Below the pieces are notes generated by a model. It made no database searches. It was given only the letters and a program-made list of their open reading frames with translations, and was not told the DNA's origin. Below, piece after piece: positions 994-15,349 of a DNA stretch of 15,641 nt. The position numbers and the translations under genes were made by a program. The stretch comes from Candidatus Sulfobium sp. (lineage in GTDB: Bacteria > Nitrospirota > Thermodesulfovibrionia > Thermodesulfovibrionales > UBA6898). The stretch is from assembly GCA_037380845.1 (NCBI GenBank), contig JARRRI010000037.1, positions 1 through 15,641 on the forward strand, given 5' to 3'. Position 1 is the stretch's first letter. Each line of letters opens with the position of its first letter.

Positions 994-3402
994 TTACCCG
1001 AGTTCACGGAGCTTCTTTTTCGCCCTGGCATTGCCGGGGTCGATCAATAGCGCGTGTTTGTATTCTTCCATCGCCCTGTATCGTATGCCGGCCCTCTCAT
1101 AGGCCTCTCCGGCCGCCAGCCTTATGTTGACATCTTCCGGCAAGGCATCGACCGCCTTTCTCATGACCATAACCGCCTCATCCGGCATGTTTTTCTTCAC
1201 AAAATACCGGTAGACATGGAAAAAATATGACGGCCTCAATTCCCTCTCATTACCGGCATAACCGAGGGCCAGGAGGTATTCCTTTTTCGCAAGGTCGTCC
1301 CGGCCGGTCTGGCTGAGGTAATCCGCAAAAGAAAGGTGCGGCGCGACCCTCTCGGGAAGTGAGCCGCGAATGTCTTTATCGTCCAGGCCGTACAATATAA
1401 GGAAGGTTATGTACTCTCCGGTATCCTGCGGTTCGAGTGCAATTGCCTTCTTTATATAACCGAGCCCGGCGTCTTTTTTGCCCCGAGCTATGAGCCATGA
1501 GGAATAAACCTTGTATCTCGCGGGATTGCTTATGTCGCAGTCAATGCCCGCCCGTAAAAGCCTGTCTGCCTCCCCGCCCTTCCCCAGATCTGAAAGCGCA
1601 AGTCCGAGGGTCTGCAGATATTCGGCGTTCGTCGTGTCCAGGAGCACCGCATTCCTGTACTGGACCAGGGCCTGCTCCTTGTTAGAAGAAAGCCATTCGG
1701 CATTGGCTATCTCATAGCGGTACTCAGCCTCGAGCGGATCGGCGCCGGCGGCCCTGTAGGCCTCACTCTTTACACGGGAAAGGTCCTCACCTGCGATACG
1801 GGATTCCGGCCTGCCGTTTTGCATGAAAGGAGAGAAGTATCTCCCGGCCAGTATGCCGACATTGAATGTCAGACCGCAGGCCAGAAGCGCCAGGGCGGAG
1901 ACCGCGAATATCCGCCCATGGCGAGACTCCTTCCTTGCGAGAAGTGTGCCTTCTTTCGTCCCGTTTCTCATCCTCGTGTGCGCTGCGGACACCGTCAGCC
2001 CGGCAAGGAAGAAGAAATAGAGGCCGTTGGCCCCTGTCTGAAGATTAAAATCTGCCATGCTGTGGATCAGTATGGAAACCAGGCCGGTGAGGCCGCCCGC
2101 CAAAAGATAGATGGAATACGGCTCTCTCCTTTTCATGAAAGTCCTCAGAGACCGGTATAAAACAGCCAGCAGGAACCATCCCATAAGCGCACATGCAACG
2201 ATGCCGCCGTCAGTCGCCAATTCCATAAAGTCATTATGGGCATGTTCGAGCGGACCCGCCGCCGCTATTGAACGGTATCGGGGATAAATATCTGCAAAGG
2301 TGCCGAACCCGGTACCCGTCAAGGGGAACTGTCTGACGATGTTGACGCAGTCCCGCCAGATGTCGAAGCGCAAATTGGAAATAGCTCCCTGCCCGTCCCT
2401 CAGATTCCTGAATTTCTCCAGTATCGGCCCCCAGCCGAACCAGCCGGACGCCGAAAGAATAAAAGCCAGAATAACAATAATTACAAGGGCCCTGTTGCTC
2501 CTCTTCCTCTTTTTTGCGACCAGCAGACAGAAGAATATCATTGACAGACTCAGGCTTATGATGCCGCCCCGGGAAAGGCTGAGGAAGACGGAAGTAGCGA
2601 TCAGCACCGACGACAGCCCCAGCAGGATGTGTACGTTTGTGCCCTTCTGGTTGAATGCCTCGGTCATCCTTTCGCGAAAAGACCCGTATTCGGTGTACGG
2701 TCTGCTCAGCAGAAAAAAACCGAAGACGACCGGAAAGATCATCTCCATCAGACCGGCGTAATGGTCCCTGTTGACGTAGGGTCCGAAGGGCGTCCCCGGA
2801 TATGTCAAACCCCTCAGCCAGTAGATTTTGCCATTCGGGATAATATACTGGAGTATGGCAAAGAAGGCGACCACTGATCCCAGCAGAATCACGGTAGAAA
2901 CCGTCTTCTTCAGCATCTCCTTCCTCGCCAGGACCTGGACGGTGATGAAATAGGCGGCAGCGTAAGACGTAAACCTGAAGAACTCTGAAACAGTGGCCTT
3001 CCTGCAGATTGAAATAGAACCCCATCCCGCATGGCCGCCTGTCCATGCCGTCTCCCGGTACAGGGACCAGGCACCCGGCGACAGGAGCTTCAGGACCGGC
3101 GGAGGAAGGGGGATGATCTGCACTATCGCGTACGACAGAAACAGCAACAGAGGGACGGTACCCGGGACTTCCCGTAATGGCTTCCCGGTGAGGACACTTC
3201 TGAAAAATATCAGACACAGCGCAAGAACGGAAGCCGACTCCATCACTGTCAGAGACCATTGTTCGACGGTCCCGAAGGCGAGGGGGGAAAAGATCAGGAG
3301 AAAGACAAGAATTCTTTGGACCGTAACGTTCATCGAGACGTGAGCCCCATTCCCCTCAAAGTTACTCTTCGGCTGTTTCCAGGTCAAACGTTTCCCGGCC
3401 AT
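994..3402 (-). CDS. O-antigen ligase/Wzy-like polymerase family membrane protein with C-terminal TPR repeats
   Basis: Many hydrophobic segments; motifs FGPYVNRDHYAG, SLSRGG, RFDIWRD, PLTGTGFGTF, HAHNDFME; C-terminal TPR-like helices (e.g. AMEEYKHALLIDPGNARAKK). The start could instead be ATG 3333. Confidence 0.85.
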   Translation of the reverse strand: MAGKRLTWKQPKSNFEGNGAHVSMNVTVQRILVFLLIFSPLAFGTVEQWSLTVMESASVLALCLIFFRSVLTGKPLREVPGTVPLLLFLSYAIVQIIPLPPPVLKLLSPGAWSLYRETAWTGGHAGWGSISICRKATVSEFFRFTSYAAAYFITVQVLARKEMLKKTVSTVILLGSVVAFFAILQYIIPNGKIYWLRGLTYPGTPFGPYVNRDHYAGLMEMIFPVVFGFFLLSRPYTEYGSFRERMTEAFNQKGTNVHILLGLSSVLIATSVFLSLSRGGIISLSLSMIFFCLLVAKKRKRSNRALVIIVILAFILSASGWFGWGPILEKFRNLRDGQGAISNLRFDIWRDCVNIVRQFPLTGTGFGTFADIYPRYRSIAAAGPLEHAHNDFMELATDGGIVACALMGWFLLAVLYRSLRTFMKRREPYSIYLLAGGLTGLVSILIHSMADFNLQTGANGLYFFFLAGLTVSAAHTRMRNGTKEGTLLARKESRHGRIFAVSALALLACGLTFNVGILAGRYFSPFMQNGRPESRIAGEDLSRVKSEAYRAAGADPLEAEYRYEIANAEWLSSNKEQALVQYRNAVLLDTTNAEYLQTLGLALSDLGKGGEADRLLRAGIDCDISNPARYKVYSSWLIARGKKDAGLGYIKKAIALEPQDTGEYITFLILYGLDDKDIRGSLPERVAPHLSFADYLSQTGRDDLAKKEYLLALGYAGNERELRPSYFFHVYRYFVKKNMPDEAVMVMRKAVDALPEDVNIRLAAGEAYERAGIRYRAMEEYKHALLIDPGNARAKKKLRELG

Positions 3403-3408
3403 CTGCCG

Positions 3409-5583
3409 CTACATGATGTCGTATCTGTTTTCTCCGTCAGCCGCGTAATAGTAATTATGATAGCGCGAATAATAGTACTTGTTCTTTTTCAGGTCGAAGG
3501 CGTTGATCACCACCCCGAAGACATTGGCATTAAGGTCGGCGAGCGACTTCAGACTCCTGCCCAGTACTTCGTAAGTGGTCTTTCCCGCCCTGGTAACGAC
3601 TATAGAGCCGTCCAGGACCTTGCCCAGGATAAGGCTGTCGACTACCGTGAGGATGGGCGGCGAGTCCCAGATTACTATATCGTATTCCCGGCCCAGCAGG
3701 CCCATCATCTCCACAAGCTTTCCGGAACCGAGAAGTTCGGACGGATTGGGGGGGACAGGCCCCGAGGGGATAACCTGAAGGTTCGGAAGAGGGCCTACAC
3801 GTATGATATCCATGTCGGAGGCTCCGGCCAGGTATGTGCTCAGTCCCTTCGAGTTGTCCATCCTGAAAACTTTGTGGACACGCGGTTTTCTCAAATCCGC
3901 ATCGACCAGGAGCACCCTGTACGCCGACTGGGCGATCGCCGCCGCCAGATTTATTGAGGTGACTGTCTTGCCCTCTTCGGGTCCGGCGCTGGTCACGAGT
4001 ATGTGCTTGGGCGGTTTCTCGGCTGAAGAAAGCAGGAGGCACGTCCTGATAGCCTTGTAATTCTCGGCGAAGGTCGAAGTCGGGTTGTCGACCACGGCGT
4101 TTTCAATCGGCCTGTCGTTAGAGGGGAAAAGTGGGATGAGGCCGAAAACCGGCACGCCGAACCTGGCCTCGACTTCCTCCGGCGATTTGACGGACTGATC
4201 GAGATATTCAACGAAAAACGCCATGCCGAAGCCCCCGAATAATCCCACGATTATTCCGAGCAGGACGTTGAGGGTCTTCCGCGGTTTCACGGGTGAAGCG
4301 GGTGTACGGGCCTTTTCAACGATCATCACATTGGCAGTCTGGATCTGTTCGGTGATATTCTGCTCCTTTATCCTCTTGATCAGTGCCTCATAGAGCTGTC
4401 TGTTGGTCTCGACCTCCCTGTTGATCATGTCGTACTCAATGAATTTTTCGTTGAGGTTGATGGCGTGACCCTTGGCCTCGGAAAGCATCCTTCTGAGGTT
4501 GTTCTCGTTGGACCTGGCCAGATCGTATTCATTTTTTATCGAGTCGATTACCCGCTTTATCTCCTGTTCCTTCTTTTCCTTCAAAACGTTCAGGTCCTCA
4601 CGTGCCCGGATCATGAGGGGGTGCTTCTTTCCGTATTTCTGCGAAAGGTCCATGATCTTCTGCTCCGCCTCCAGTATCTGCTGCCGAAGGGACTGGAGGG
4701 TCGGGTCATCAGCGATGGCAGACACCGTCTCCGCCTTTCCAGGATGGCTGGAGACCTCCCTGACCTGGTTATACAACGTCTCCATCTCCTCCCGCCTGGT
4801 CTGTGCCTTTACGAGCTGACTGTTGAGCTGCGATATCTGTTCCGGAACGATAGCCATTTTGTTCTGGATGGTAACGAGGTCCTGGCTCTTGATATACTTC
4901 TGGAGCGCCCTCTCGGAGTCGTCGAGCCTCTTCTTCTCTTCTTCAGCCTTCTTGGTCATCCACTGAAGCGTATGTTTGGTGGAACCCATATTCAAATCCA
5001 GAAGCTCATCTATGTATGCCTTCGCCACCGTGTTGGCAACGGATTTTGCCAGCCCGGGATTAGTTGATATATAATTGACAGTGACGATCTTGCTGTTTTT
5101 CACTGGGTCGACGGATATACCTGCACTGATGGTCTTTGCAAGCATGTCCTCTCTGCTCTCCTCCTCCGAGCCCGAGGGCTTCTCCTCCTTCTTTCCGAAA
5201 ATCACTGACGAGAGGTCCCTGAACCATCCGGAAACCGCGTCCACCATTGAAAACCCGCTGTCCGGCCCCTTCATAAGAGAGCCATAAGTCTTTTCAAGGT
5301 CGAGCATCCGGACCACCCTTCTTGCCACCGGTATGCTTTTTATTATCTGATACTGGGTCTCGTAAAAGTCGGGGTCATAAGGCATATATCCGTAATTCGT
5401 CATAAGGGGTACGGACTCCCTCTTCTCGATGAGGACCTTGGTCGATGCCATATAGACCGGCGTGGCAGAAAATGTGCCTATAAGAACAACCGTAAAAACC
5501 ACGATAAAAAAGGTATAGACCGTATACCTTCTCTTATCGATGACCCTCAGGTAGTCCCGTAAATGAATCTCTCTCTCTTCCAT
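3409..5583 (-). CDS. wzc: Polysaccharide co-polymerase / tyrosine autokinase (Wzc/GumC family)
   Basis: N-terminal EIHLRDYLRVI plus TM helix, PVYMAST, long coiled-coil periplasmic region, PVKPRK plus second TM, Walker A GPEEGKT, DADLRKP, Walker B DSPP and Tyr-rich tail YYYSRYHNYYY. Confidence 0.93.
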   Translation of the reverse strand: MEEREIHLRDYLRVIDKRRYTVYTFFIVVFTVVLIGTFSATPVYMASTKVLIEKRESVPLMTNYGYMPYDPDFYETQYQIIKSIPVARRVVRMLDLEKTYGSLMKGPDSGFSMVDAVSGWFRDLSSVIFGKKEEKPSGSEEESREDMLAKTISAGISVDPVKNSKIVTVNYISTNPGLAKSVANTVAKAYIDELLDLNMGSTKHTLQWMTKKAEEEKKRLDDSERALQKYIKSQDLVTIQNKMAIVPEQISQLNSQLVKAQTRREEMETLYNQVREVSSHPGKAETVSAIADDPTLQSLRQQILEAEQKIMDLSQKYGKKHPLMIRAREDLNVLKEKKEQEIKRVIDSIKNEYDLARSNENNLRRMLSEAKGHAINLNEKFIEYDMINREVETNRQLYEALIKRIKEQNITEQIQTANVMIVEKARTPASPVKPRKTLNVLLGIIVGLFGGFGMAFFVEYLDQSVKSPEEVEARFGVPVFGLIPLFPSNDRPIENAVVDNPTSTFAENYKAIRTCLLLSSAEKPPKHILVTSAGPEEGKTVTSINLAAAIAQSAYRVLLVDADLRKPRVHKVFRMDNSKGLSTYLAGASDMDIIRVGPLPNLQVIPSGPVPPNPSELLGSGKLVEMMGLLGREYDIVIWDSPPILTVVDSLILGKVLDGSIVVTRAGKTTYEVLGRSLKSLADLNANVFGVVINAFDLKKNKYYYSRYHNYYYAADGENRYDIM

Positions 5584-5597
5584 CTCCCCTTGTATGA

Positions 5598-6392
5598 CTA
5601 GAAGAAACTCTCGGGTACGACGATGACGTCGTCCGGCAGCACGGTCTGGTCCATTTTCACATCTTCTATTACGTCGTCTTTCCCGTTTTCATTTCGTATG
5701 ACCTTCACCCTTCCGGTCGACGCCTTATCAGTAAACCCTCCTGCCATGGTTATCGCCTTCAGTACCGTTGTCCCCTCCTCGAATTTGTATGCATCGGGTT
5801 TCCTGACCTCGCCCGTCACATAAAAAACTCCGGCCTTGGGTATGTAAATACTGTCGCCGTCCACAATGGGGATGTCCTGCGAAGTATCACCCATCTCTAT
5901 CAGGCGCTTGAGATCGATTGTGATGATTTTTTCCTTCTTACCGGCAGAACCCGGCTTCCTCTTGACTATCGCCTTGTCGCCGGCATCCTTGGTCAGATCA
6001 CCCGCCTTCGAAAGGACTTCGAGGAAGGTCGTATAACCCTTGAGTTCATACAGGCCAGGGTTCTTTACCTGGCCCATGATAGTCGCTTTCTGACTTCTGA
6101 ACTCTTTGATAAATACGGTAACCTGGGGCAAGACAATATAACCGTCGGAAAGCAAGCCGGCTATCTTCCGCGACACCTCGGATACTGTGAGTCCTGAAAT
6201 CTTGACATGCCCTATGAGCGGAAAGATTACGGTCCCCTCACCGCTCACGCGCACCGTGGTAGTCAGATCGGGATGGTCATATACCGTTATCTGAAGAACG
6301 TCGCCTTCCCCGACGATATAATCCTGAGCGGCCACGGGACGACATATGGCCAGGATGAAAACCAGAAATCCGATGATCCCAATCGACTTCAT
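5598..6392 (-). CDS. wza: Polysaccharide export OPX protein (Wza family; Poly_export plus two SLBB domains), short non-lipoprotein type
   Basis: DYIVGEGDVLQITVYDHPDL...VSGEGTVIFPLIG export motif; SLBB motifs MGQVKNPGLYEL and VTGEVRKPDAY...AITMAGGFT; ends VIVVPESFF. Confidence 0.9.
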   Translation of the reverse strand: MKSIGIIGFLVFILAICRPVAAQDYIVGEGDVLQITVYDHPDLTTTVRVSGEGTVIFPLIGHVKISGLTVSEVSRKIAGLLSDGYIVLPQVTVFIKEFRSQKATIMGQVKNPGLYELKGYTTFLEVLSKAGDLTKDAGDKAIVKRKPGSAGKKEKIITIDLKRLIEMGDTSQDIPIVDGDSIYIPKAGVFYVTGEVRKPDAYKFEEGTTVLKAITMAGGFTDKASTGRVKVIRNENGKDDVIEDVKMDQTVLPDDVIVVPESFF

Positions 6393-6536
6393 ATCCTAGA
6401 CTTATACATAATCCTCAGTTAGTATACTTAAAGACCGTCACAATTATAAAGGAATTTATCAAAAAAACGGAAATGTTTGTCCCTGAAGGGGGGGCGCAGG
6501 CATGAGGCCGCCGCCGGCCCCGACATCTCAAGAGGG

Positions 6537-7931
6537 TTACAAGGACCCCGTAACCCTGAAGAATATCGTGTTGCTCACGAAATCGAAATCGGCATAGGAG
6601 GAGTCGCGCCTGGTGTATACATACCCGACACTGCTTCTGAGCCATTTCTGGAACTCATACTGCAGGCCTATGGCCGCCTGATATATGTTGTTCTCTATGT
6701 CAGCAGTATTCCCTTCCGCTGAAACAATGCCTTTATATCTCTCGTTGATGTAGAGAAGGTCTGCCAGGCCGGTGATCTTCGAAGTAAAGAGCTGCTGGTA
6801 CTTGGCTCCTATCTGGTTGGTTATTGTATACAGGGATGTCTCCACGTTGGTCTCATCCGTCTTCCTGAAGCCTGTTACCGTCAGAGAAGTCTTGGGGGTG
6901 AACTGATGCTTCATCCGGGCCTCCGCTATAAACGTATTTACCTTTTCTGAAGAGCCTGTAAAGTCTTTGACGCCGTAGCCGGCCTTTACCATCCCCTTTG
7001 ATTTCGCCGTTATGTCCCATTGGACACCGGCCAGAAAATGATGTTCGTCACTGTCGAGGCTGGGATCATTGACATATGAAATGTCGATAAACCTGTACTC
7101 TGCAAACGCAGCAGTCTTGGTCTTGAACCTGTAAAAAACATACCCGGAAAAAGAGTTGTCGGTCCGGTCCCTGAACCTGTTCCTCAGGTCATCGTAGCGG
7201 GTTATGAAGTTGGAATAATCCAGCCGGAGACGCAACCGGTTGCCGGTATCGACATATGCAGCGGCCTCAAAAAGATTATTGTAAAACTTGTCGACCTCTC
7301 CCGGAGCGGTCGATATGTTCAGCCCCCTGGTTTCAAAGGATTTCACGAAAAGGTCGACAACATCGGCCGAAAATTTGTTGCCGTTATACTCGAAGCTCCC
7401 GTATCCGGTATGGCTGAGGGTATTCCTGTAAGGAGAATTGGCAGACGGCAAAGGGATATCGGCCCGATACAGAAAATAGGTCTGATACCTCCTCAGGACC
7501 TCCGGTTTGTACCTCGTGAAGATCAGCCCGCCCGGCATGCGGTTGGCCGTGTCGTCGATCACCAGGCGCTTTTCGGTAACCCGGGGCAGTGAAAGCCATA
7601 TCTCGGGCGACAGTATTGTGCTCAGATTCGTCTTTTTATTGTCTTTTGTCGCAAAGGCGTTGTCCGTGTATATCTCAGTAACCGACAGGGAGGGGTGAAA
7701 GTAACTCCCTCCCCTTCCGAATATATCCCTGTAACTTCTCATGGTGCCGACCGGGCCTTCTTCCCGCTGCAATCCTTCCGGTGTGCCTTCATCTCCAGCC
7801 TCGCTCAGAAGGAAATAGCAGTTCAAGTTCGCAGGCGCCCCACCCCTCTCACCTTCAACAATACCGGCATGGGAAGCGATTGCATGGAAAAAGAAAGAAA
7901 AAAACAAGATAGCTAACACGATTTTTTTCAT
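6537..7931 (-). CDS. Outer-membrane beta-barrel protein associated with exopolysaccharide export
   Basis: Signal peptide MKKIVLAILFFSFFFHAIASHA from ATG 7931 (track start TTG 7976 is likely too long); alternating aromatic/polar beta strands; C-terminal NTIFFRVTGSL resembling a beta-signal; directly upstream of wza-wzc. Confidence 0.82.
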   Translation of the reverse strand: MKKIVLAILFFSFFFHAIASHAGIVEGERGGAPANLNCYFLLSEAGDEGTPEGLQREEGPVGTMRSYRDIFGRGGSYFHPSLSVTEIYTDNAFATKDNKKTNLSTILSPEIWLSLPRVTEKRLVIDDTANRMPGGLIFTRYKPEVLRRYQTYFLYRADIPLPSANSPYRNTLSHTGYGSFEYNGNKFSADVVDLFVKSFETRGLNISTAPGEVDKFYNNLFEAAAYVDTGNRLRLRLDYSNFITRYDDLRNRFRDRTDNSFSGYVFYRFKTKTAAFAEYRFIDISYVNDPSLDSDEHHFLAGVQWDITAKSKGMVKAGYGVKDFTGSSEKVNTFIAEARMKHQFTPKTSLTVTGFRKTDETNVETSLYTITNQIGAKYQQLFTSKITGLADLLYINERYKGIVSAEGNTADIENNIYQAAIGLQYEFQKWLRSSVGYVYTRRDSSYADFDFVSNTIFFRVTGSL

Positions 7932-7943
7932 AATTTCCCTGAT

Positions 7944-7973
7944 ATTCTTGACAAAGAAACTGGTATTGTCAAG
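7944..7973 (-). promoter_or_regulatory. Putative promoter of the export operon overlapped by an inverted repeat
   Basis: Minus strand TTGACA (7972-7967), 17-nt spacer, AAGAAT (7949-7944); dyad CTTGACAA-N11-TTGTCAAG at 7947-7973. Confidence 0.45.
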
Positions 7974-8051
7974 CAAAATCGGGACATTCCAGGGAGACTC
8001 TTCACGTCTGTGCGCAAGGCTTCCAACTTAACATTCAGTTCAGCCACGCCA

Positions 8052-8176: not shown

Positions 8177-8686
8177 TTAAAAAGTCGACGGACTGATGGG
8201 AGGGTCGGGGTTAGGCTTCGGGATAGGATCGAAAGGCGCAAGAGTGTTTTCCGGCGGGTCGGAGGCTTGATGTTCAGTTTCAAAAAAGCTGAGGCTCACT
8301 CCCGCCCGCTGCAGGCTTGCTGCCACGGCAACGGAATTTACTCCGGCGTCCACAGCGCATCTTGAAACAACGTCGGATGTAGTACCTGCTTCCAGGGCGC
8401 CCGAAATTATCTCCTTCAGGTTCCCGCCACCGTCTATGGCACATTTGACCACCAGGCACGGCTTGTTGCCAAGTTCTATAGCAGTACTGACAACTTCCCT
8501 GTCGTTTATGCCCTGCTCGATCGTCACCTCTACGGCTCTGCAAATATCCGCTCGTCCATTATTTTCATAAAGCCTGTCCTTTGTGTCCTTACTGGCGAAG
8601 GCTGGAATGGAGAAGATAAGAAAGAATATCGCGGCAGCGATACACGAGACAGAACTCTTACTAATAGCTGTTTTCCCGCCTTTCAT
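8177..8686 (-). CDS. Hypothetical secreted protein with 14-aa tandem repeats and a Pro-rich tail
   Basis: Signal-peptide-like N-terminus (IAAAIFFLIFSIPAFA); five 14-aa units; tail DPIPKPNPDPPISPSTF; same strand as the export genes. Confidence 0.75.
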   Translation of the reverse strand: MKGGKTAISKSSVSCIAAAIFFLIFSIPAFASKDTKDRLYENNGRADICRAVEVTIEQGINDREVVSTAIELGNKPCLVVKCAIDGGGNLKEIISGALEAGTTSDVVSRCAVDAGVNSVAVAASLQRAGVSLSFFETEHQASDPPENTLAPFDPIPKPNPDPPISPSTF

Positions 8687-8776: not shown

Positions 8777-10681
8777 TCACACCTCCCTTCCGTTGCTGGC
8801 ATTAAGAACACCGGGGGTGCAGTCATGTAGCTTCCTGTAAAGGCTGTTCTTCCCGAGAAGCTCCCTATGTGTCCCTCGCTCCACTATCTCTCCCTTATCC
8901 AGAACCAGTATCGTGTCGGCCATGTCTACCATTGAAAGCCGGTGGGCTACGATGAATGTGGTCCTGTCGGCGGCGAGTTTGTTTATCGAGTCCTTGACCA
9001 GCGCTTCCGTCCGAGGGTCCAGCGAAGAAGTCGGCTCGTCAAGTATAAGTATAGCCGGATTTCTCAGAAATGCCCGTGCGATCGAAATGCGCTGTCTCTG
9101 TCCTGCCGAAAGCCGGACCCCGCGTTCACCCACTTCAGACTCATATCCGTCGGGAAACGCCTCGATATCGTCAGCAATGTGTGCCAGCCTCGCGGCCCGG
9201 ACAACATCTTTTTTCGCGGCAAATGGGCTGCCGTGCTTTATGTTGTTCTCTATGGTGTCGTCAAACAGGAAGACCTCCTGGGACACGACGCCGACCTTCC
9301 CTCTGAGCCATCTCGGGGACATCTCCCGGATATCGCGACCGTCCAGATATATGGCCCCCTGCTGCGGAGCCTGGAACTTCAGAAGGAGGTTCACCAATGA
9401 GGTCTTGCCCGCCCCTGTGGGTCCCGCAAGGGCAATAATCTCGCCCGGTCCCGCCGAGAAGTTTGTGTTCCTGAGGACCGGCCTGCCCTCTTCATACCAG
9501 AAGGAGACGTTGTCGAATGTGATTTCACCCCTTATTTTCCCCGGGTCACCAACGTCCCGTATATCATCTTCTTCAGTAAATTCCGGAATGAGGCTGAAAA
9601 TCTCCTTAAGCCTCTCCATGGATGCAAAGGCCGGCTGGATCGACATGTGGAAAGTCAATATGCTGTTCAATGCGCCTGCAAGAAGAACTGCATAAGACGT
9701 GAAGGCAACGTAATCTCCGATGGTCAGCTGCCTTTGCAAAACCTCATTGATACCAACCCACATGATTACCAGATTGGCTGCAAACAGGGAACCGGCCGAA
9801 GCATAATTCGAAAAAAGAGAAAGAAACATCGCCTTTATCCTTTTATGGACAACAGCCCTCATACCGCTTGAGACCTTCTGCCCTTCCCGTTCTTCGGCGG
9901 TATTCGCCTTGATGGTCTCCACTCCGGACAAGATCTCCTGTAAGTCGCCTGAGACGCGGGCACTCGTTTCGCGTTCCTGGAAACTGACATCCCTGAGCCT
10001 TGAGCCGAAAAAATAGTTTATCATCAAATAGAGAGGTAAAGCGGCGGCCAGTATGAGCGACAGTTTGAAGCTGAGTGCGAAAACTATTACTATGCCGAAA
10101 AAGAAATAGAACGCCTTGGAAAAAACCTGGGCAATGCTTTCGGAAAACAACATCTGAAGGACGTATATATCGTCTGACACCCTCGACATCAGGTATCCCG
10201 TCCGCTGTCTCTTGAAAAAAGGCACGGGGAATCTCAGGAGATGATCGAACAGGGTTGTCTGGATATTGAAGGTAACCTCCTGCTGAAACCTCAGCGCCAG
10301 GTACTTCTGGATGATGCCGGTTATTCCGGCCGCTATACCGATTGTCAGTACGGCCAGGACCACAAAAGTCAATGCTTCGGGCGCGTGCCTGACAGGGTCC
10401 GATATATCAGAGAGGCCGAGAATCCGAAGAAAATGTCCGACCCCGTGGAGGTCCTTTTTCAGGACCACAAAATCTATCAGGACCTTGCCACTCAGCGGTA
10501 GCAGTGAACTGAAAGCGGTGGCAACAAGGGATAAAACAAGGACTGCGAGACCGGTCTTCCACAAAGGCCTCACAAATCTGCCGAAGAAAAGAACATCCCG
10601 GTATCCAAACTCACCACCCCGGCGTTCGGGCCTCTCCAGGATGTCCCTCAGATATGCCGTTGCTTTACGAAGTTGCGTCAC
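8777..10681 (-). CDS. ABC exporter with fused permease and ATPase (MsbA-like/peptide exporter type)
   Basis: N-terminal TM domain (TGYLMSRVSDD); Walker A GPTGAGKT, Q-loop VSQE, signature LSAGQRQR, Walker B ILILDE, H-loop VAHRLS. No N-terminal C39 peptidase domain is apparent. Confidence 0.92.
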   Translation of the reverse strand: MTQLRKATAYLRDILERPERRGGEFGYRDVLFFGRFVRPLWKTGLAVLVLSLVATAFSSLLPLSGKVLIDFVVLKKDLHGVGHFLRILGLSDISDPVRHAPEALTFVVLAVLTIGIAAGITGIIQKYLALRFQQEVTFNIQTTLFDHLLRFPVPFFKRQRTGYLMSRVSDDIYVLQMLFSESIAQVFSKAFYFFFGIVIVFALSFKLSLILAAALPLYLMINYFFGSRLRDVSFQERETSARVSGDLQEILSGVETIKANTAEEREGQKVSSGMRAVVHKRIKAMFLSLFSNYASAGSLFAANLVIMWVGINEVLQRQLTIGDYVAFTSYAVLLAGALNSILTFHMSIQPAFASMERLKEIFSLIPEFTEEDDIRDVGDPGKIRGEITFDNVSFWYEEGRPVLRNTNFSAGPGEIIALAGPTGAGKTSLVNLLLKFQAPQQGAIYLDGRDIREMSPRWLRGKVGVVSQEVFLFDDTIENNIKHGSPFAAKKDVVRAARLAHIADDIEAFPDGYESEVGERGVRLSAGQRQRISIARAFLRNPAILILDEPTSSLDPRTEALVKDSINKLAADRTTFIVAHRLSMVDMADTILVLDKGEIVERGTHRELLGKNSLYRKLHDCTPGVLNASNGREV

Positions 10682-10705
10682 CGGTTATTTTCCAAAATTC
10701 CTGTT

Positions 10706-10766
10706 AATAAGCATACAATTTTTGTACATCCGAAAGCGAGTGGATGGTCCGGCGAACCGAGCATAA
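10706..10766 (+). repeat. Direct repeat copy A (~60 bp)
   Basis: AATAAGCATACAATTTTTGTACATCCGAAAGCGAGT matches 14314-14349 at 34/36 positions; weaker similarity continues (GGATGGTCCGGCGAAC vs GGACGGTCCGGTGGAC). Confidence 0.9.
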
Positions 10767-10996
10767 TCGCAAACAAATCCTGCCACAGTATTTGCGCGGC
10801 AAGGCACATCAAAGGAAAATTTACGCCATCAATTAGGGCCCGGTAGGCAGAAAAATTCTGCCCCCCTTAATCACACAAGAGCTCCATAGCCAAAGTCGGC
10901 CAAGTCCAAAAAAGAAATGTTCTCAGTGAACGTATACCGCTTATCATCATTTTTTTGCGAACTAAGTTTTTGTCTTGGCAGAAGGGCGGGTATATT

Positions 10997-11025
10997 TTGA
11001 CTTTTTACGGCCGTTTGTCTATTCT
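10997..11025 (+). promoter_or_regulatory. Putative sigma70 promoter of the RRE-rSAM-precursor operon (leaderless)
   Basis: TTGACT (10997-11002), 17-nt spacer, TATTCT (11020-11025); GTG start at 11031 with no SD sequence. Confidence 0.6.
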
Positions 11026-11030
11026 AAATT

Positions 11031-11321
11031 GTGAAAATATCGGTGGATACAATTTTCAAAAAAAGCGAAAATGTTGTCTTTAGAAAAATACAGGATGAAT
11101 ACATCCTTGTGCCTATCGTCGCCTCTGCTGCTGATGTCGATTCGATCTTCAATCTCAATGAGACGGGTGCCGCAGTCTGGGAGAGAATTGACGGTGTGAA
11201 GAAACTGTCTGACATAATTGAAGATATCAAGGCGGAATATGAAGGCGAACGAAAGGAGATAGAAGATGACGTAATGGCGTTTGTCGGTAGAATGGTAGAA
11301 GAAAAGTTGATTGAAGCGTGA
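11031..11321 (+). CDS. PqqD-family RiPP recognition element (stand-alone RRE)
   Basis: 96 aa with pattern FRKIQDEYILVP...IFNLNETGAAVWERIDG...LSDIIEDIKAEYE...IEDDVMAFVGRMVEEKLI; TGATG-coupled to the radical SAM gene. Confidence 0.92.
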   Translation: MKISVDTIFKKSENVVFRKIQDEYILVPIVASAADVDSIFNLNETGAAVWERIDGVKKLSDIIEDIKAEYEGERKEIEDDVMAFVGRMVEEKLIEA

Positions 11322-12445
11322 TGAGCAACGTTTCTTACGCATATTTCAGCGCGAAAGTGCATTCCGGCACTTCAGATAAGCGCATCCCGCTCGACGCAAG
11401 CATCGACCTCACCTACCGGTGCAACAACAAGTGCGTCCACTGTTACTGCAATCTCCCCGAACGCGACGTCACGGCAAAAAGCAATGAGCTGAATACGGAA
11501 GAGGTAAAGAAGCTGTTTGACGGCCTCGCGTCGTTAGGCACTCTATGGCTCCTGATAACCGGGGGAGAGCCCCTCCTCAGGGAAGACTTCGAGGAGATTT
11601 ATATTTATGCAAAAAAGAAGGGGTTTCTCATCACTTTCTTTACGAACGGAACCCTCATCGAAGACAAGACCGTTCGGCTTCTGACGAAATATCCTCCTTT
11701 CGTGGTCGAGATTTCCCTTTATGGAGCTGCTGAGGATACGTATGAAAAAGTTAGCCGCGTAAAAAGGTCTTATCAACGGTGCATGGAAGGGATAAGAAGA
11801 ATCATTAACGCCGGCATAAGGCTTAGACTCAAGTCCATGGCTATGACAATCAACCGGCATGAGATTGATGCAATGGACAGGATGGCCCGGGAACTGGGGT
11901 GCCAGTTCCGGTTTGACCCCATAGTCAGTAAACGAATTGACAAGAATGCTTTGTCAGACCCTGCGAAATATCGAATCTCTCCCGAAGACGTCGTGCGCCT
12001 CGATAAGGCATATCCGAAGCGTATGGAGGGATGGAAGCGATTTTGCGATAAATTTGTTGGAGAACAGAACAGGGACAACAGACTCTACAAATGCGGCGCA
12101 GGTATCGGCGCCATTCACGTCGACCCTTACGGGGATGTAAGGGGCTGCATGACGATGAGGGGGGATGGTTTTTCAATAAGGGAGCACGACCTGGGGTGGA
12201 TTTGGAGGGAAGGCATACTTTCAGTAACCACCCGAAAGAAGGATTTCTTCCTTCCCTGCGATGACTGTCATCTCGCGAATCTCTGCGGGCAGTGCCCGGC
12301 ATGGTCAATCCTTGAAAGCGGGGACATGAGAAAAGAAGTTGCATATTTATGTGAAATTGCAAAAATAAGGAGCAGGAATTTTGAATTTATCAAACCAGAA
12401 CGAGGGGAGAAAAGATATGGGAAAGAAGAAATGGTCAAAGCCTGA
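11321..12445 (+). CDS. Radical SAM / SPASM-domain peptide maturase
   Basis: LTYRCNNKCVHCY (CxxxCxxC), ITGGEPLLR, FTNGT, ISLYG; C-terminal SPASM with 7 Cys (CGAG...DPYGDVRGC...CDDCHLANLCGQCPAWS...YLC). ATG 11321 overlaps the RRE stop; GTG 11318 is an alternative start. Confidence 0.93.
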   Translation: MSNVSYAYFSAKVHSGTSDKRIPLDASIDLTYRCNNKCVHCYCNLPERDVTAKSNELNTEEVKKLFDGLASLGTLWLLITGGEPLLREDFEEIYIYAKKKGFLITFFTNGTLIEDKTVRLLTKYPPFVVEISLYGAAEDTYEKVSRVKRSYQRCMEGIRRIINAGIRLRLKSMAMTINRHEIDAMDRMARELGCQFRFDPIVSKRIDKNALSDPAKYRISPEDVVRLDKAYPKRMEGWKRFCDKFVGEQNRDNRLYKCGAGIGAIHVDPYGDVRGCMTMRGDGFSIREHDLGWIWREGILSVTTRKKDFFLPCDDCHLANLCGQCPAWSILESGDMRKEVAYLCEIAKIRSRNFEFIKPERGEKRYGKEEMVKA

Positions 12446-12566
12446 GTGTCAGAAGATAAAACTGGTTGTGGAGGAAGCCGTAATAACCGGGTGCAAACAT
12501 GGCCACGATTCCGGCCCCGGAACAATTTGTGCAGGCGGAGCGCTATGCAGAACCGGTGCGAGCTAA
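12417..12566 (+). CDS. Putative RiPP precursor peptide (49 aa)
   Basis: MGKKKWSKPECQKIKLVVEEAVITGCKHGHDSGPGTICAGGALCRTGAS. SD-like GAGGGGAG upstream of ATG 12417; basic N-terminus with W-x-x-P motif; Gly/Cys-rich C-terminal half; overlaps the rSAM 3' end by 29 nt. Confidence 0.85.
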   Translation: MGKKKWSKPECQKIKLVVEEAVITGCKHGHDSGPGTICAGGALCRTGAS

Positions 12567-12644
12567 TCCCTCGCTGAGAAGAAAAATAACGAGAGGCACA
12601 GACTCTTTTTTTATCTCTGAGGGTAATGTGTAATGTTCCCTCGT

Positions 12645-12685
12645 TTCAGGCACCTTAAAATGCCTGAATTGTTGCCATAGGCAAC
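12645..12685. terminator. Tandem hairpins between convergent genes (possible terminator or stabiliser)
   Basis: TTCAGGCA-CCTTAAAA-TGCCTGAA (12645-12668) and GTTGCC-ATA-GGCAAC (12671-12685); no strong U-tract. Confidence 0.4.
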
Positions 12686-12705
12686 GAGTTATCAAACTAA
12701 CAACG

Positions 12706-13587
12706 TTAAGTCACTAAGCTTCTCACGTAGTTCACAACAGAAGAATCATTAACAAATTCAAGCTCATAGCATTCTTTTTCCTGGGCAACCAGTGTACAGA
12801 AGTCCAAAGAAAACTCCATCCCCTCCCTGTTCCAGAAGGTTGGGAAGCACCTAACCAAAAGCCTGTTGACAGCGTCGGTTTTAGAAATTGGAATCGCCCT
12901 GTTCTCCTTGCCGTGCCTGATGAAAAATATTTTCTCTATCGGGACCCCTATGTTTTTATGCATCTCTGCAGTCCCGTGCCATGGGGTACCGAATGCCGAG
13001 AGTTCATTGCTGAATTCTCGAATTATAACCCTTTCGTCCGTCAAAACGTCCGCTCCACCATCTTGCTGCCAGATTTCTGACATCGTTGACTTGCCCGCGC
13101 CTGATACGCCTGCAAAGAGATATCCTCTGCCGTTTAAAGAAATACAAGCGGAATGGAGAATTATTCCGATTTTGTTAATATTAATGTGGCCGGAGACAGC
13201 TAGATCGCCAAGGGGATATTCGAGGGGGGCGAGTATACCTTCGTCATTGGGTCTTGCATAAATTATGAAGTCAGTAAATTCCCTGTCGGCCTTTATCATC
13301 CTATAAGGCTTAACTTCTCTCAAAGCTGCTTGTAAAGAGATTAAGTAGCCAGGTTTATTATCATCTTTAAGTATTGTCCATAAACCGTCCGGACCGGATG
13401 TGAATATCTTTCTCGACGATTCCGAGGAAGGAAAAGGGGACGTTGTATTCAGCCGGAACTGAATGTCCGGCAATTCAAAGGTCCCGGCGGCAAATGACTC
13501 AAGAGCCGCATCCAAAAATATTTTATACTCCTCCGGATTGGATTCAAGGGAAATTTTCAATTCTCCGATACTAAAGAATCTCCTCAT
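12706..13587 (-). CDS. HPr-kinase-related P-loop NTPase/kinase of the type found in RRE-containing RiPP clusters
   Basis: ILHSACISLNGRGYLFAGVSGAGKSTMS (His plus Walker A), VLTDERVII acidic pair, AFGTPWHG. ATG 13587 is preferred over TTG 13623, which coincides with a -35-like box. Confidence 0.8.
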   Translation of the reverse strand: MRRFFSIGELKISLESNPEEYKIFLDAALESFAAGTFELPDIQFRLNTTSPFPSSESSRKIFTSGPDGLWTILKDDNKPGYLISLQAALREVKPYRMIKADREFTDFIIYARPNDEGILAPLEYPLGDLAVSGHININKIGIILHSACISLNGRGYLFAGVSGAGKSTMSEIWQQDGGADVLTDERVIIREFSNELSAFGTPWHGTAEMHKNIGVPIEKIFFIRHGKENRAIPISKTDAVNRLLVRCFPTFWNREGMEFSLDFCTLVAQEKECYELEFVNDSSVVNYVRSLVT

Positions 13588-13593
13588 TGTATT

Positions 13594-13647
13594 ACTATGC
13601 CAAAATATATACGTGATTTTCAAAGCCTGTTACTGAACTGATAAAAT
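13594..13647. promoter_or_regulatory. Putative back-to-back promoters for the kinase-like and peptidase genes
   Basis: Minus: TTGAAA (13623-13618)-N18-CATAGT (13599-13594), ATG 6 nt later. Plus: TTCAAA (13619-13624)-N17-TAAAAT (13642-13647). Both -10 boxes are preceded by TGn and the -35 boxes overlap. Confidence 0.45.
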
Positions 13648-13668
13648 AATTGGGAATAGGAACGAGGA

Positions 13669-14112
13669 TTGAAGAAGGTTAAAGAAGTTCACAAAAAACT
13701 ATTGGAGGAAGGATTTGATATTCGTATCAGTAGCCTTGGCTCGTCAATGTTTCCTCTGATTGCGACAGGTGACAAGATCACCATAAGCCCGGAGAAAAGC
13801 TTCGTCGTCGGAAACCTTATCGTATTCACGAGAGGTGAACAGATGGTGTGTCACAGGCTTGTAAAAGTTTTCGAGAAAGGGGGCATCAAATATTATCAAG
13901 CCCGGGGGGATTCATTTTTTTGCCTTGATGACCCGGTAACATCGGACCAAATACTGGGAAGGGTGACGAAGATCGAGAGAGAGAACGTCTCGGTCTTGAG
14001 AAGAATCCTGCTTTTTGTCCATCCAGTACTCAGGTTCAGCAAGATAAATGCATTTGTTATAGCAATCCTGATAAGACTCAAAGCATTCCTTCCATCGCCC
14101 CAATCCCATTAA
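13669..14112 (+). CDS. S24/S26-family (signal peptidase I-like) serine peptidase
   Basis: LGSSMFPLIATGD (catalytic Ser box), GNLIVF, MVCHRLV (His general base), ARGDS...DDPV...ILGRV; TTG start after GAGGA; hydrophobic/basic C-terminus and no N-terminal TM helix. Confidence 0.85.
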   Translation: MKKVKEVHKKLLEEGFDIRISSLGSSMFPLIATGDKITISPEKSFVVGNLIVFTRGEQMVCHRLVKVFEKGGIKYYQARGDSFFCLDDPVTSDQILGRVTKIERENVSVLRRILLFVHPVLRFSKINAFVIAILIRLKAFLPSPQSH

Positions 14113-14461: not shown

Positions 14462-15349
14462 CTATTTCACAGTTGTCTTGCTGCCTACCAGGACCGAACA
14501 TCCGGCATGGCCCAGTGTCCTTCTGGACACGCTTCCCAGCATTCCCCTGATCCCCCTCAGTCCCCTGCTGCCCACAGCGATCATGTCCGCTTCCCATTTT
14601 TCGGACTCCTCAAGTATCAATGTCGACGGATCTCCTTTTTCGATGATCCTGCCGACATTCGAAAATCGCCTTCTCAACCGAAGCTCCGCTTCCTGCACCA
14701 CTCTTTCTGCCGCTTCAGCCTCCACGGTCCTCATCCTGGCAACCGTCTCCTTCATTTTTTCATCCACTTCCAGTGCCAGCCTCTCGGGTATGTCGGAAAC
14801 CGCAGACCACTCGACGTTAATAATCTTTACCTGGGTGTCATCCCCCAGCGGCAAGGACGTCAGTAAATCGCCGGTCACCTCTGCAGAATCCGAGCCGTCC
14901 GCGGCAAAAAGGACCTTCAAGGCTCCTCCACCCCGCGCCGCTGGCTTGGTAACCAGTACCGGTTTTGATGAATTGATAACAACGGACCGCGTGGAACTTC
15001 CCAGAAGGAAGGCCTTGAGGCCCTTTATCCCCCTCGCCCCCATCACAATCAGGTCCATGCCCGCATTGGCCGCGATATCCATGATCGTCGAATCGGGATA
15101 GCCCTCCTCTTCCATCGTGACCACCCTGGCCTTCACGGGCTTGAGGATGCCGGCCGCCGTCCTCAGTATTCCCGGGGCCGCCCTCCTGATAAACTGTCTT
15201 ACCTGGGCACGATAGTCATCCTCGAAGGGTATTTCGGAAACGACATGAAGCACCACGATCTCGTCCTGCGCGGAAAAATCAAAGCGCGTAAGGAACCTTG
15301 CCGCGCCTTCGGAAAACTCGGAACCGTCGGTAGCCAGCAGAACTTTCAT
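14462..15349 (-). CDS. Universal stress protein with two tandem Usp domains
   Basis: MKVLLATDGSEFS...DLIVMGARG...LLGSSTRSVV...PVLV and KVLFAADGSDSA...DMIAVGSRG...MLGSVSRRTLGHAGCSVLV. Confidence 0.93.
   Translation of the reverse strand: MKVLLATDGSEFSEGAARFLTRFDFSAQDEIVVLHVVSEIPFEDDYRAQVRQFIRRAAPGILRTAAGILKPVKARVVTMEEEGYPDSTIMDIAANAGMDLIVMGARGIKGLKAFLLGSSTRSVVINSSKPVLVTKPAARGGGALKVLFAADGSDSAEVTGDLLTSLPLGDDTQVKIINVEWSAVSDIPERLALEVDEKMKETVARMRTVEAEAAERVVQEAELRLRRRFSNVGRIIEKGDPSTLILEESEKWEADMIAVGSRGLRGIRGMLGSVSRRTLGHAGCSVLVGSKTTVK

Follow-up and report, generated by a model that had tools for sequence, protein, structure and literature searches.

We analyzed a 15,641-base stretch of DNA from Candidatus Sulfobium sp. 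(hereafter ‘the window’), which makes up the whole of contig C37; the genome has a size of 3.18 Mb and, judged by marker genes, a completeness of 100%. Positions 8777-14112 carry a six-gene cassette that probably encodes the production of a peptide made by the ribosome and modified after translation (RiPP). In our reading, to which we give a probability of roughly 60%, a radical S-adenosylmethionine (rSAM) maturase with a SPASM domain has been joined to a module of the LPP/paeninodin type, consisting of a RiPP recognition element (RRE), a kinase, a signal peptidase and an exporter. The evidence lies in what can be observed directly: gene content, intact motifs, folds, co-occurrence of the genes in relatives, natural gene fusions and conservation of the precursor. 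An original prediction made from the sequence alone had described a cluster of the RiPP type that has a stand-alone RRE, an rSAM-SPASM enzyme, a Cys-containing precursor, an HPrK-like kinase, a signal-peptidase-like protease and an ATP-binding cassette (ABC) exporter, and our domain and motif searches support that description. All six genes are present, with catalytic motifs intact, at the following positions:

8777-10681, minus strand: ABC exporter, MsbA-like, 634 amino acids, with Pfam domains ABC_membrane and ABC_tran
10682-11030: divergent intergenic region between the ABC and PqqD genes, containing the left copy of a direct repeat
11031-11321, plus strand: PqqD-family discrete RRE, 96 amino acids, PF05402
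11318 (GTG start) or 11321 (ATG start) to 12445, plus strand: radical SAM/SPASM maturase, PF04055
12417-12566, plus strand: precursor peptide, 49 amino acids, ATG start
12706-13623, minus strand: HPrK/PEPCK-fold kinase-like protein, with a likely start at ATG 13587 as judged from alignment
13669-14112, plus strand: S24/S26 peptidase, 147 amino acids

The overlap of the PqqD, rSAM and precursor genes was confirmed. The stop codon of PqqD and the ATG of the rSAM gene have the sequence TGATG in common, and the precursor ATG at 12417 sits 29 nt within the rSAM gene; judging from these overlaps, the rSAM gene is translationally coupled both to PqqD and to the precursor. The HPrK-like and S24/S26 genes are divergent, with a 45-nt spacer between them.

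In the proposed pathway, the 96-residue PqqD protein would bind the W6-x-x-P9 motif in the leader of the 49-residue precursor. The rSAM-SPASM enzyme, acting on a core presented by PqqD, would then cross-link C26, C38 and C44 intramolecularly, most likely as thioethers, and the HPrK-fold kinase would transfer phosphate from ATP to the hydroxyl of a Ser, most likely S49 and possibly more than once. A peptidase with the putative residues Ser26/His62/Asp81, aided by PqqD, would remove the leader after E19-E20-A21 to give a 28-residue core, which the MsbA-like ABC pump would export. We place cleavage after A21 because W6 lies 15 residues before it and a Glu occupies position –2, a geometry like that of LPP leaders. 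S49 was chosen as the candidate phosphosite because the paeninodin and pseudomycoidin kinases modify a C-terminal Ser, and because the C-terminal Ser is conserved in the precursor family and core position +3 (Thr in the window) is not conserved among aligned precursors.

Co-occurrence and gene fusions

We gathered 156 loci (numbered with L below) that surround rSAM relatives in collections of genomes and metagenomes, among the matches listed; the set leaves out relatives that are 60-80% identical. Among the 26 listed loci with close rSAM relatives (phmmer E <1e-60), PqqD was found in 23, an HPrK-like gene in 19, an S26 peptidase in 14 and a precursor in 20, and most absences fall on contigs shorter than 5 kb. 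Among the 100 listed loci with distant relatives (E 1e-30 or weaker), HPrK-like, PqqD and S26 genes were each found once, and no precursor was found. Co-occurrence of the cassette is specific to the rSAM clade of the window. The original prediction had staked itself on similar short peptides standing beside rSAM homologs, and the 20 precursors among the 26 close loci listed bear it out.

A profile of 23 HPrK-like proteins, searched against 1.84 billion proteins, matched 5,791 representatives at E 1e-30 or better. Nine long representatives were scanned with Pfam: three are fusions of Radical_SAM with the HPrK-like domain (P0128, P0145 and P0232), one joins HPrK-like and Peptidase_S24 domains (P0219), one joins a methyltransferase to the HPrK-like domain (P0129), and the other four gave no Pfam match. 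Single open frames matching both rSAM and HPrK-like proteins also occur in four of the collected loci (L014, L089, L105 and L115). Such natural fusions argue that the rSAM, HPrK-like and S24 activities act on one substrate. Closer to the window, 11 of 14 further genomes from the same family carry the HPrK-like gene, as do 52 of the 401 genomes sampled in the phylum, the window genome being one of the 52.

The precursor peptide family

The open reading frame (ORF) list opens the precursor frame at TTG 12381, and the likelier start is the ATG at 12417, which has a Shine-Dalgarno-like GAGGGGAG just before it. From this start, the leader M1-A21 carries both W6-x-x-P9 and E19-E20-A21, and the predicted core V22-S49 (28 residues) contains C26, C38, C44 and the C-terminal S49. 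Should the cut fall after A21, the core before modification has a calculated neutral monoisotopic mass of 2625.221 Da. Six-frame ORFs of the loci were searched with the window proteins and with a hidden Markov model built from eight precursors, and the family comprises 57 distinct precursor-like peptides (58 matches counting the window). Leaders open with a basic stretch followed by a [W/Y]xxP motif; of the 45 distinct peptides that bear it, 23 have W at its first position, 20 have Y and 2 have F. Most leaders end in (P)EE(A/S)-(V/I)-L-x-x-C-K. Among 20 aligned precursors, P9, C26 and K27 never vary, and conservation of E20, C38 and C44 is 90% or higher. Precursors of single-rSAM loci, the window included, have three core Cys residues. 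The C-terminal residue is Ser in 49 of the 57 distinct precursors, against a Ser background of 11% in the same regions, and exactly 5 or 6 residues follow the last Cys in 40 of 57.

Relatives with two or three rSAM genes (L089, L094, L110, L106 and L184) have arrays of 2-6 precursor genes, and the peptides encoded there have four to six Cys residues each. The number of enzymes and the number of Cys residues seem to rise together across these multi-rSAM relatives, although we made no formal count.

Maturation enzymes and exporter

The PqqD protein matches PF05402 (E 7.4e-18), and its closest solved chains are RREs of the lasso type: PbaB1 (9x90_B, E 7.6e-6), TbiB1 (5v1u, 1.3e-5) and LppB (9x8z_B, 8.3e-4), the codes having been named via PMC13381572. 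The rSAM enzyme matches PF04055 (E 2.5e-23), with C35/C39/C42 forming the CX3CX2C motif. In an alignment of 16 homologs, with identity down to 44%, this motif is invariant together with seven C-terminal Cys residues (C259, C277, C314, C317, C323, C326 and C345), indicating a full SPASM domain. The enzyme thus has the combination of CX3CX2C and seven-Cys SPASM that marks the superfamily of rSAM-SPASM peptide maturases. In profile searches, its closest solved structures are SkfB (6efn, E 4.3e-20), PqqE (6c8v, 1.4e-15) and CteB (5wgg, 5.3e-10). SkfB makes a Cys thioether and CteB is likewise a thioether-forming enzyme, whereas PqqE forms a C-C bond.

The same RiPP cluster could also use its rSAM enzyme for a C-C or C-O cross-link, for epimerization or for Cys oxidation, with the Cys residues serving in disulfides or metal binding; we consider this unlikely. 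The second rank of PqqE among solved structures would suit such chemistry, as would the scores of MftC, AhbD and NirJ-type models, which are level with those of thioether-enzyme models on the window enzyme, and in the 20-precursor alignment no core residue at a fixed distance from a Cys is conserved as an acceptor. Against this stand the three Cys residues, which with K27 are the only invariant or near-invariant residues of the core, and the thioether chemistry of SkfB, the closest solved relative. Thioether cross-linking of the three Cys residues is the outcome we favor in the proposed pathway.

The HPrK-like protein has the P-loop GVSGAGKST; H157, G177, K178 and T180 are invariant across 23 homologs, and an acidic pair (D196-E197) is kept. 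Its profile matches the HPr kinase/phosphorylase structures 2qmh, 1ko7 and 1jb1 (E about 8e-6) over about 70 profile positions around the P-loop. The AlphaFold2 (AF2) model, with a mean confidence (pLDDT) of 92.6, was matched by Foldseek to ATP-PEPCK (E 2e-7) and to the HPr kinase/phosphorylase 1knx (3.6e-5). From the P-loop, His157, the acidic pair and the HPrK/PEPCK fold, the enzyme looks competent, and so, by their own motifs, do the rSAM maturase and the peptidase. The NCBIfam models ScmC, HprK_rel_A and HprK_rel_B give 24-28 bits, below cut-off; membership in the HPr-rel-A, HprK_rel_B and GeoRSP systems was considered and set aside, as every cut-off is missed, both in the window and in the two-rSAM relatives L012, L015 and L017.

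The original prediction had suggested that the peptide is possibly phosphorylated. Our analysis adds a candidate site, the C-terminal Ser, and the +80 Da chemistry itself stays an inference. It is a good deal less probable, in our view, that the HPrK-like protein, instead of being a peptide kinase, is an ATP-dependent scaffold, a phosphorylase or an enzyme with another substrate (e.g. a polysaccharide export component), the C-terminal Ser being kept for some other reason, such as its recognition by the exporter or the rSAM enzyme or its cross-linking to the last Cys. Such a role is compatible with the short span of the HPr kinase match and with the strand of the kinase gene, which in the window is opposite to that of PqqD, rSAM and precursor. 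The distance of 5-6 residues from the last Cys to the C-terminus also fits a cross-link from Cys to the C-terminal residue, of the kind that PapB is described as forming in vitro (PMC12373016). Weighing on the other side, both characterized types of HprK-like kinase from RiPP systems, LppK (PMC13381572) and PadeK/PsmK (PMC6993621), are reported to phosphorylate their own precursor peptides. Some relatives carry the HPrK-like gene as a fusion with rSAM or S24 domains, and it is found with the rSAM clade (19 of 26 loci) across many phyla, mostly without polysaccharide genes.

In the peptidase, Ser26 is at least 90% conserved and H62, R63 and D81 are invariant among 11 homologs. Its profile matches SEC11A/C, the signal peptidase of the endoplasmic reticulum (ER) type, at E 8e-11, with the Ser, His and Asp in the SEC11 positions. 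The AF2 model (pLDDT 84.4) has an N-terminal helix at residues 2-13 and no N-terminal membrane anchor, and Foldseek assigns it a LexA/SEC11/SipA fold. The protein thus combines Ser/His(/Asp) with an S26 fold, as ER/archaeal-type signal peptidase I (SipW/SEC11) does, and we predict that it is the leader peptidase, soluble in type and SipW/SEC11-like. When a complex of PqqD, peptidase residues 1-112 and precursor was predicted, a control outscored the complex, so that the model speaks neither for nor against binding or the cleavage site. Leader removal by a signal-peptidase-like enzyme, as put forward in the original prediction, now has a precedent in the LPP family, in which such a protease is described as working alongside an RRE, a kinase of the HprK type and an MsbA-like pump (PMC13381572).

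Some relatives have peptidases with a C-terminal GNAT acetyltransferase-like domain (L088:6430-7341, L117:3825-4682 and L100:1556-2587), whose profile matches many GNAT structures. This suggests that the newly exposed N-terminus of the core may be N-acetylated in those systems.

The exporter has an ABC_membrane domain at residues 46-338 (E 8.9e-46) and an ABC_tran domain at 403-552 (E 3.1e-32), with no peptidase domain found in Pfam and NCBIfam scans. Its best NCBIfam matches are MsbA_rel and MsbA, all under cut-off. Homologous ABC genes adjoin the cassette in L177, L178, L017, L015, L094 and L105.

Comparison with known systems

The closest characterized parallel is the LPP clusters, lppA-K-B-S-D-N of Paenibacillus alginolyticus (Popov et al., Nat Commun 2026; PMC13381572). 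The gene set comprises the RRE LppB, the HprK-like LppK, the SipW-like LppS (S29/H68/D93), the MsbA-like LppD and the nucleoside triphosphate (NTP) transferase LppN. LppK polyphosphorylates core Ser3, and LppS cuts the leader after T-1 only with LppB present. The leader has a Tyr at –16, within the consensus YxxPxVLxHQxIxFETxxS. The clusters, stated to be confined to Bacillota, are located in capsule loci (PMC13381572).

By domains, motifs and folds, the window likewise brings together a stand-alone RRE, an HprK-like kinase, a SipW-type peptidase and an MsbA-like exporter. Both systems have [Y/W]xxP about 16 residues before the cleavage site (predicted in the window) and a Glu at –2, and both adjoin polysaccharide loci. 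The two systems also differ. The LPP product is linear and made without an rSAM enzyme, whereas the window has an rSAM-SPASM maturase; LppN lies within its cluster, whereas the window has no PF14907 gene; and the remaining leader motif, VLxHQxIxFET, is unmatched in the window precursor. LPP clusters are reported from Bacillota only, and the window belongs to a Nitrospirota-like lineage. The words ‘radical’, ‘SPASM’, ‘rSAM’ and ‘thioether’ are absent from the text of the LPP paper, supplements aside (PMC13381572).

Paeninodin and pseudomycoidin clusters, as far as they are described in the sources consulted, resemble the window in having an HprK-like kinase, a precursor ending in Ser and a WxxP leader bound by a discrete PqqD-type RRE. 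PadeK and PsmK are reported to add 1-3 phosphates to the side chain of the C-terminal Ser (PMC6993621). The paeninodin-type RRE PbaB1 (9x90_B) is the best RRE match of the window PqqD, better than LppB. These systems differ from the window in that their product is a macrolactam lasso, whereas we propose Cys cross-linking by an rSAM enzyme and assign leader removal to an S26 peptidase. No lasso cyclase or B2 cysteine protease was found among the 13 window genes by Pfam and NCBIfam searches.

Sactipeptide and ranthipeptide systems (SkfB, CteB, PapB, AlbA) share with the window a Cys-bearing core and an RRE-guided rSAM enzyme that carries a SPASM or Twitch domain; they differ in that the window RRE is a separate protein and no family model is matched at cut-off. 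To our knowledge, a kinase and a signal-peptidase-like protease are not part of such systems.

The likeness to SynChlorMet cassettes (NCBIfam TIGR04248-TIGR04251) put forward in the original prediction is one of general composition (a PqqD relative, an rSAM/SPASM enzyme and an HPrK-like ‘ScmC’) and does not extend to membership: ScmC and HprK_rel_B are the top NCBIfam matches of the kinase-like protein and ScmD, ScmE and ScmF also appear among the matches, but all four curated cut-offs are missed by far (ScmC, TIGR04249, 26.5 of 125 bits; ScmD, TIGR04248, 29.2 of 100; ScmE 74.8 of 400; ScmF 78.7 of 400), the window has a single rSAM gene versus two, and two-rSAM relatives (L012, L015 and L017) miss the cut-offs as well (ScmC 36-42 bits), making membership of the window cassette (ScmC/D/E/F) highly improbable.

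Our literature search found no paper naming SynChlorMet, none pairing HprK with SPASM, and, among the papers listed, none on an rSAM-containing hybrid cassette, supplementary tables with possible rSAM neighbors lying outside the search. None of the main texts of PMC7470986, PMC12710340 and PMC10288494 contains the terms kinase, HPr or signal peptidase. The rSAM version of the cassette is conserved and without a known product, while some of its enzymes belong to a set whose first characterization dates from 2026. The original prediction, which knew of no characterized product for this combination of genes, agrees with our search as regards the rSAM hybrid, and no longer applies to the LPP-type subset of enzymes.

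If the reading is correct, the product would be the first ribosomal peptide to combine radical-SAM cross-linking, HprK-type Ser phosphorylation and signal-peptidase-like leader removal. It would also extend the LPP/paeninodin logic, demonstrated for the first time in 2026 and in Bacillota, to Nitrospirota, Thermodesulfobacteriota, Acidobacteriota-like and other uncultured lineages. The precursors yield a compact and easily tested prediction in their three Cys residues, fixed tail and terminal Ser.

Evidence against the proposed pathway

Several observations weigh against the hybrid RiPP pathway proposed above. We infer every chemical step, the order in which the steps follow, where the leader is cut and what the product does. 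For the rSAM enzyme, no NCBIfam maturase model reaches its cut-off: the PapB model (NF047865) gives 66.9 bits versus 340, and the AlbA and StsB models give 84-88 bits versus 625-850 (AlbA 87.8 versus 850). Because no model of a characterized maturase reaches cut-off, the type of cross-link is not readable from homology, and the Cys-X3-Asp/Glu pattern of PapB-type ranthipeptides is absent from the cores.

For the kinase step, the C-terminus is not Ser in 8 of the 57 precursors (Thr in 3), and the LPP phosphosite is core Ser3, near the cleavage site, whereas the conserved Ser of the window family is C-terminal. The likeness to LppK and LppS is one of domains, motifs and folds, and the direct match to LppB (9x8z_B) is at E 8.3e-4. 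The peptidase scores 41 bits with sigpep_I_arch, whose cut-off is 51.85.

Finally, no ABC gene was found near L009, L179 and L181, which are among the closest relatives, so that export by an ABC pump is not a fixed feature of the cassette. This bears on the description of the cluster as apparently complete, which is plausible but unproven: besides these loci, systems related to the window cassette often carry an NTP transferase, and the only candidate in this genome lies on another contig.

Genomic surroundings

The remaining features of the window are as follows:

3-641: ribosomal protein S1 gene, 5′ part, at the left contig end; ordinary flank
994-7976, minus strand: exopolysaccharide export locus of four genes, from Pfam and NCBIfam matches
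994-3402, minus strand: Wzy_C+TPR protein
3409-5583, minus strand: Wzc-like chain-length protein/tyrosine autokinase
5598-6392, minus strand: EpsE/Wza-like exporter
6537-7976, minus strand: EpsL-like outer-membrane barrel
8177-8686, minus strand: 169-residue secreted protein, possible accessory gene
10699-10757: direct repeat, left copy, 18 nt upstream of the ABC start codon
14307-14368: direct repeat, right copy, 88% identical over 43 nt to 10699-10741
14462-15349: gene for a tandem-domain universal stress protein, bordering the cassette on the right; ordinary flank

Downstream of the ABC gene on the minus strand lie the gene for the 169-residue protein and then the polysaccharide genes. The 169-residue protein has no Pfam or NCBIfam match; its Atlas clusters are unnamed and mostly from Nitrospirota and Thermodesulfobacteriota, and homologs stand beside the cassette in L009, L179 and L181. 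In L179 and L181, from two other genera of the same family, this gene and the polysaccharide genes are contiguous with the cassette, and in L009 the genes for the 169-residue protein and an EpsL-like barrel are. Within this family, the cassette heads an exopolysaccharide export locus. Gene order and strand in these three loci differ from those of the window and the ABC gene was not found, yet the neighbors are kept. The link to polysaccharide genes was not seen in eight other genome loci compared, and it may be a case of family-level synteny.

This neighborhood recalls the capsule-locus association of LPPs and paeninodins, itself unexplained, and hints at a role in the envelope or matrix rather than in antibiosis. 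We can go further only as speculation, on which we would not wager much: the product may represent a new RiPP class, a triple thioether-stapled peptide with a (poly)phosphorylated C-terminal Ser and a cell-surface rather than antibiotic role. After export, the exopolysaccharide machinery (Wzy_C/O-antigen-ligase-like, Wzc, Wza/EpsE and EpsL-like proteins) might build further on its phosphoserine end or couple that end to polysaccharide, giving a peptide-polysaccharide conjugate, or a primer or anchor of the matrix.

The direct repeat (about 45-65 nt) flanks the PqqD-to-peptidase block on both sides. The genome has no further copy at E <1e-10, and a single weak match of 25 nt lies on another contig. 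The repeat may be a regulatory site that was duplicated or, given that gene order differs from that of relatives, the trace of a rearrangement. The intergenic region between the ABC and PqqD genes also has promoter-like sites on the plus strand at 10920-10947 and 10997-11025, which are consensus matches only; counts in the promoter and terminator scan were near shuffled expectation, and an Rfam scan of the whole window gave no match. The sequencing runs listed as sharing words with the window are all of DNA, namely marsh metagenomes that may be its source and two runs from one salt-marsh study with 0.93 and 0.83 of the words; no RNA run is among them. The sole PF14907 gene of the genome (NTP_transf_5, of the LppN/PsmN type) lies at C44:21237-21968 (L190), unlinked to the cassette and surrounded by genes for GT4 glycosyltransferases.

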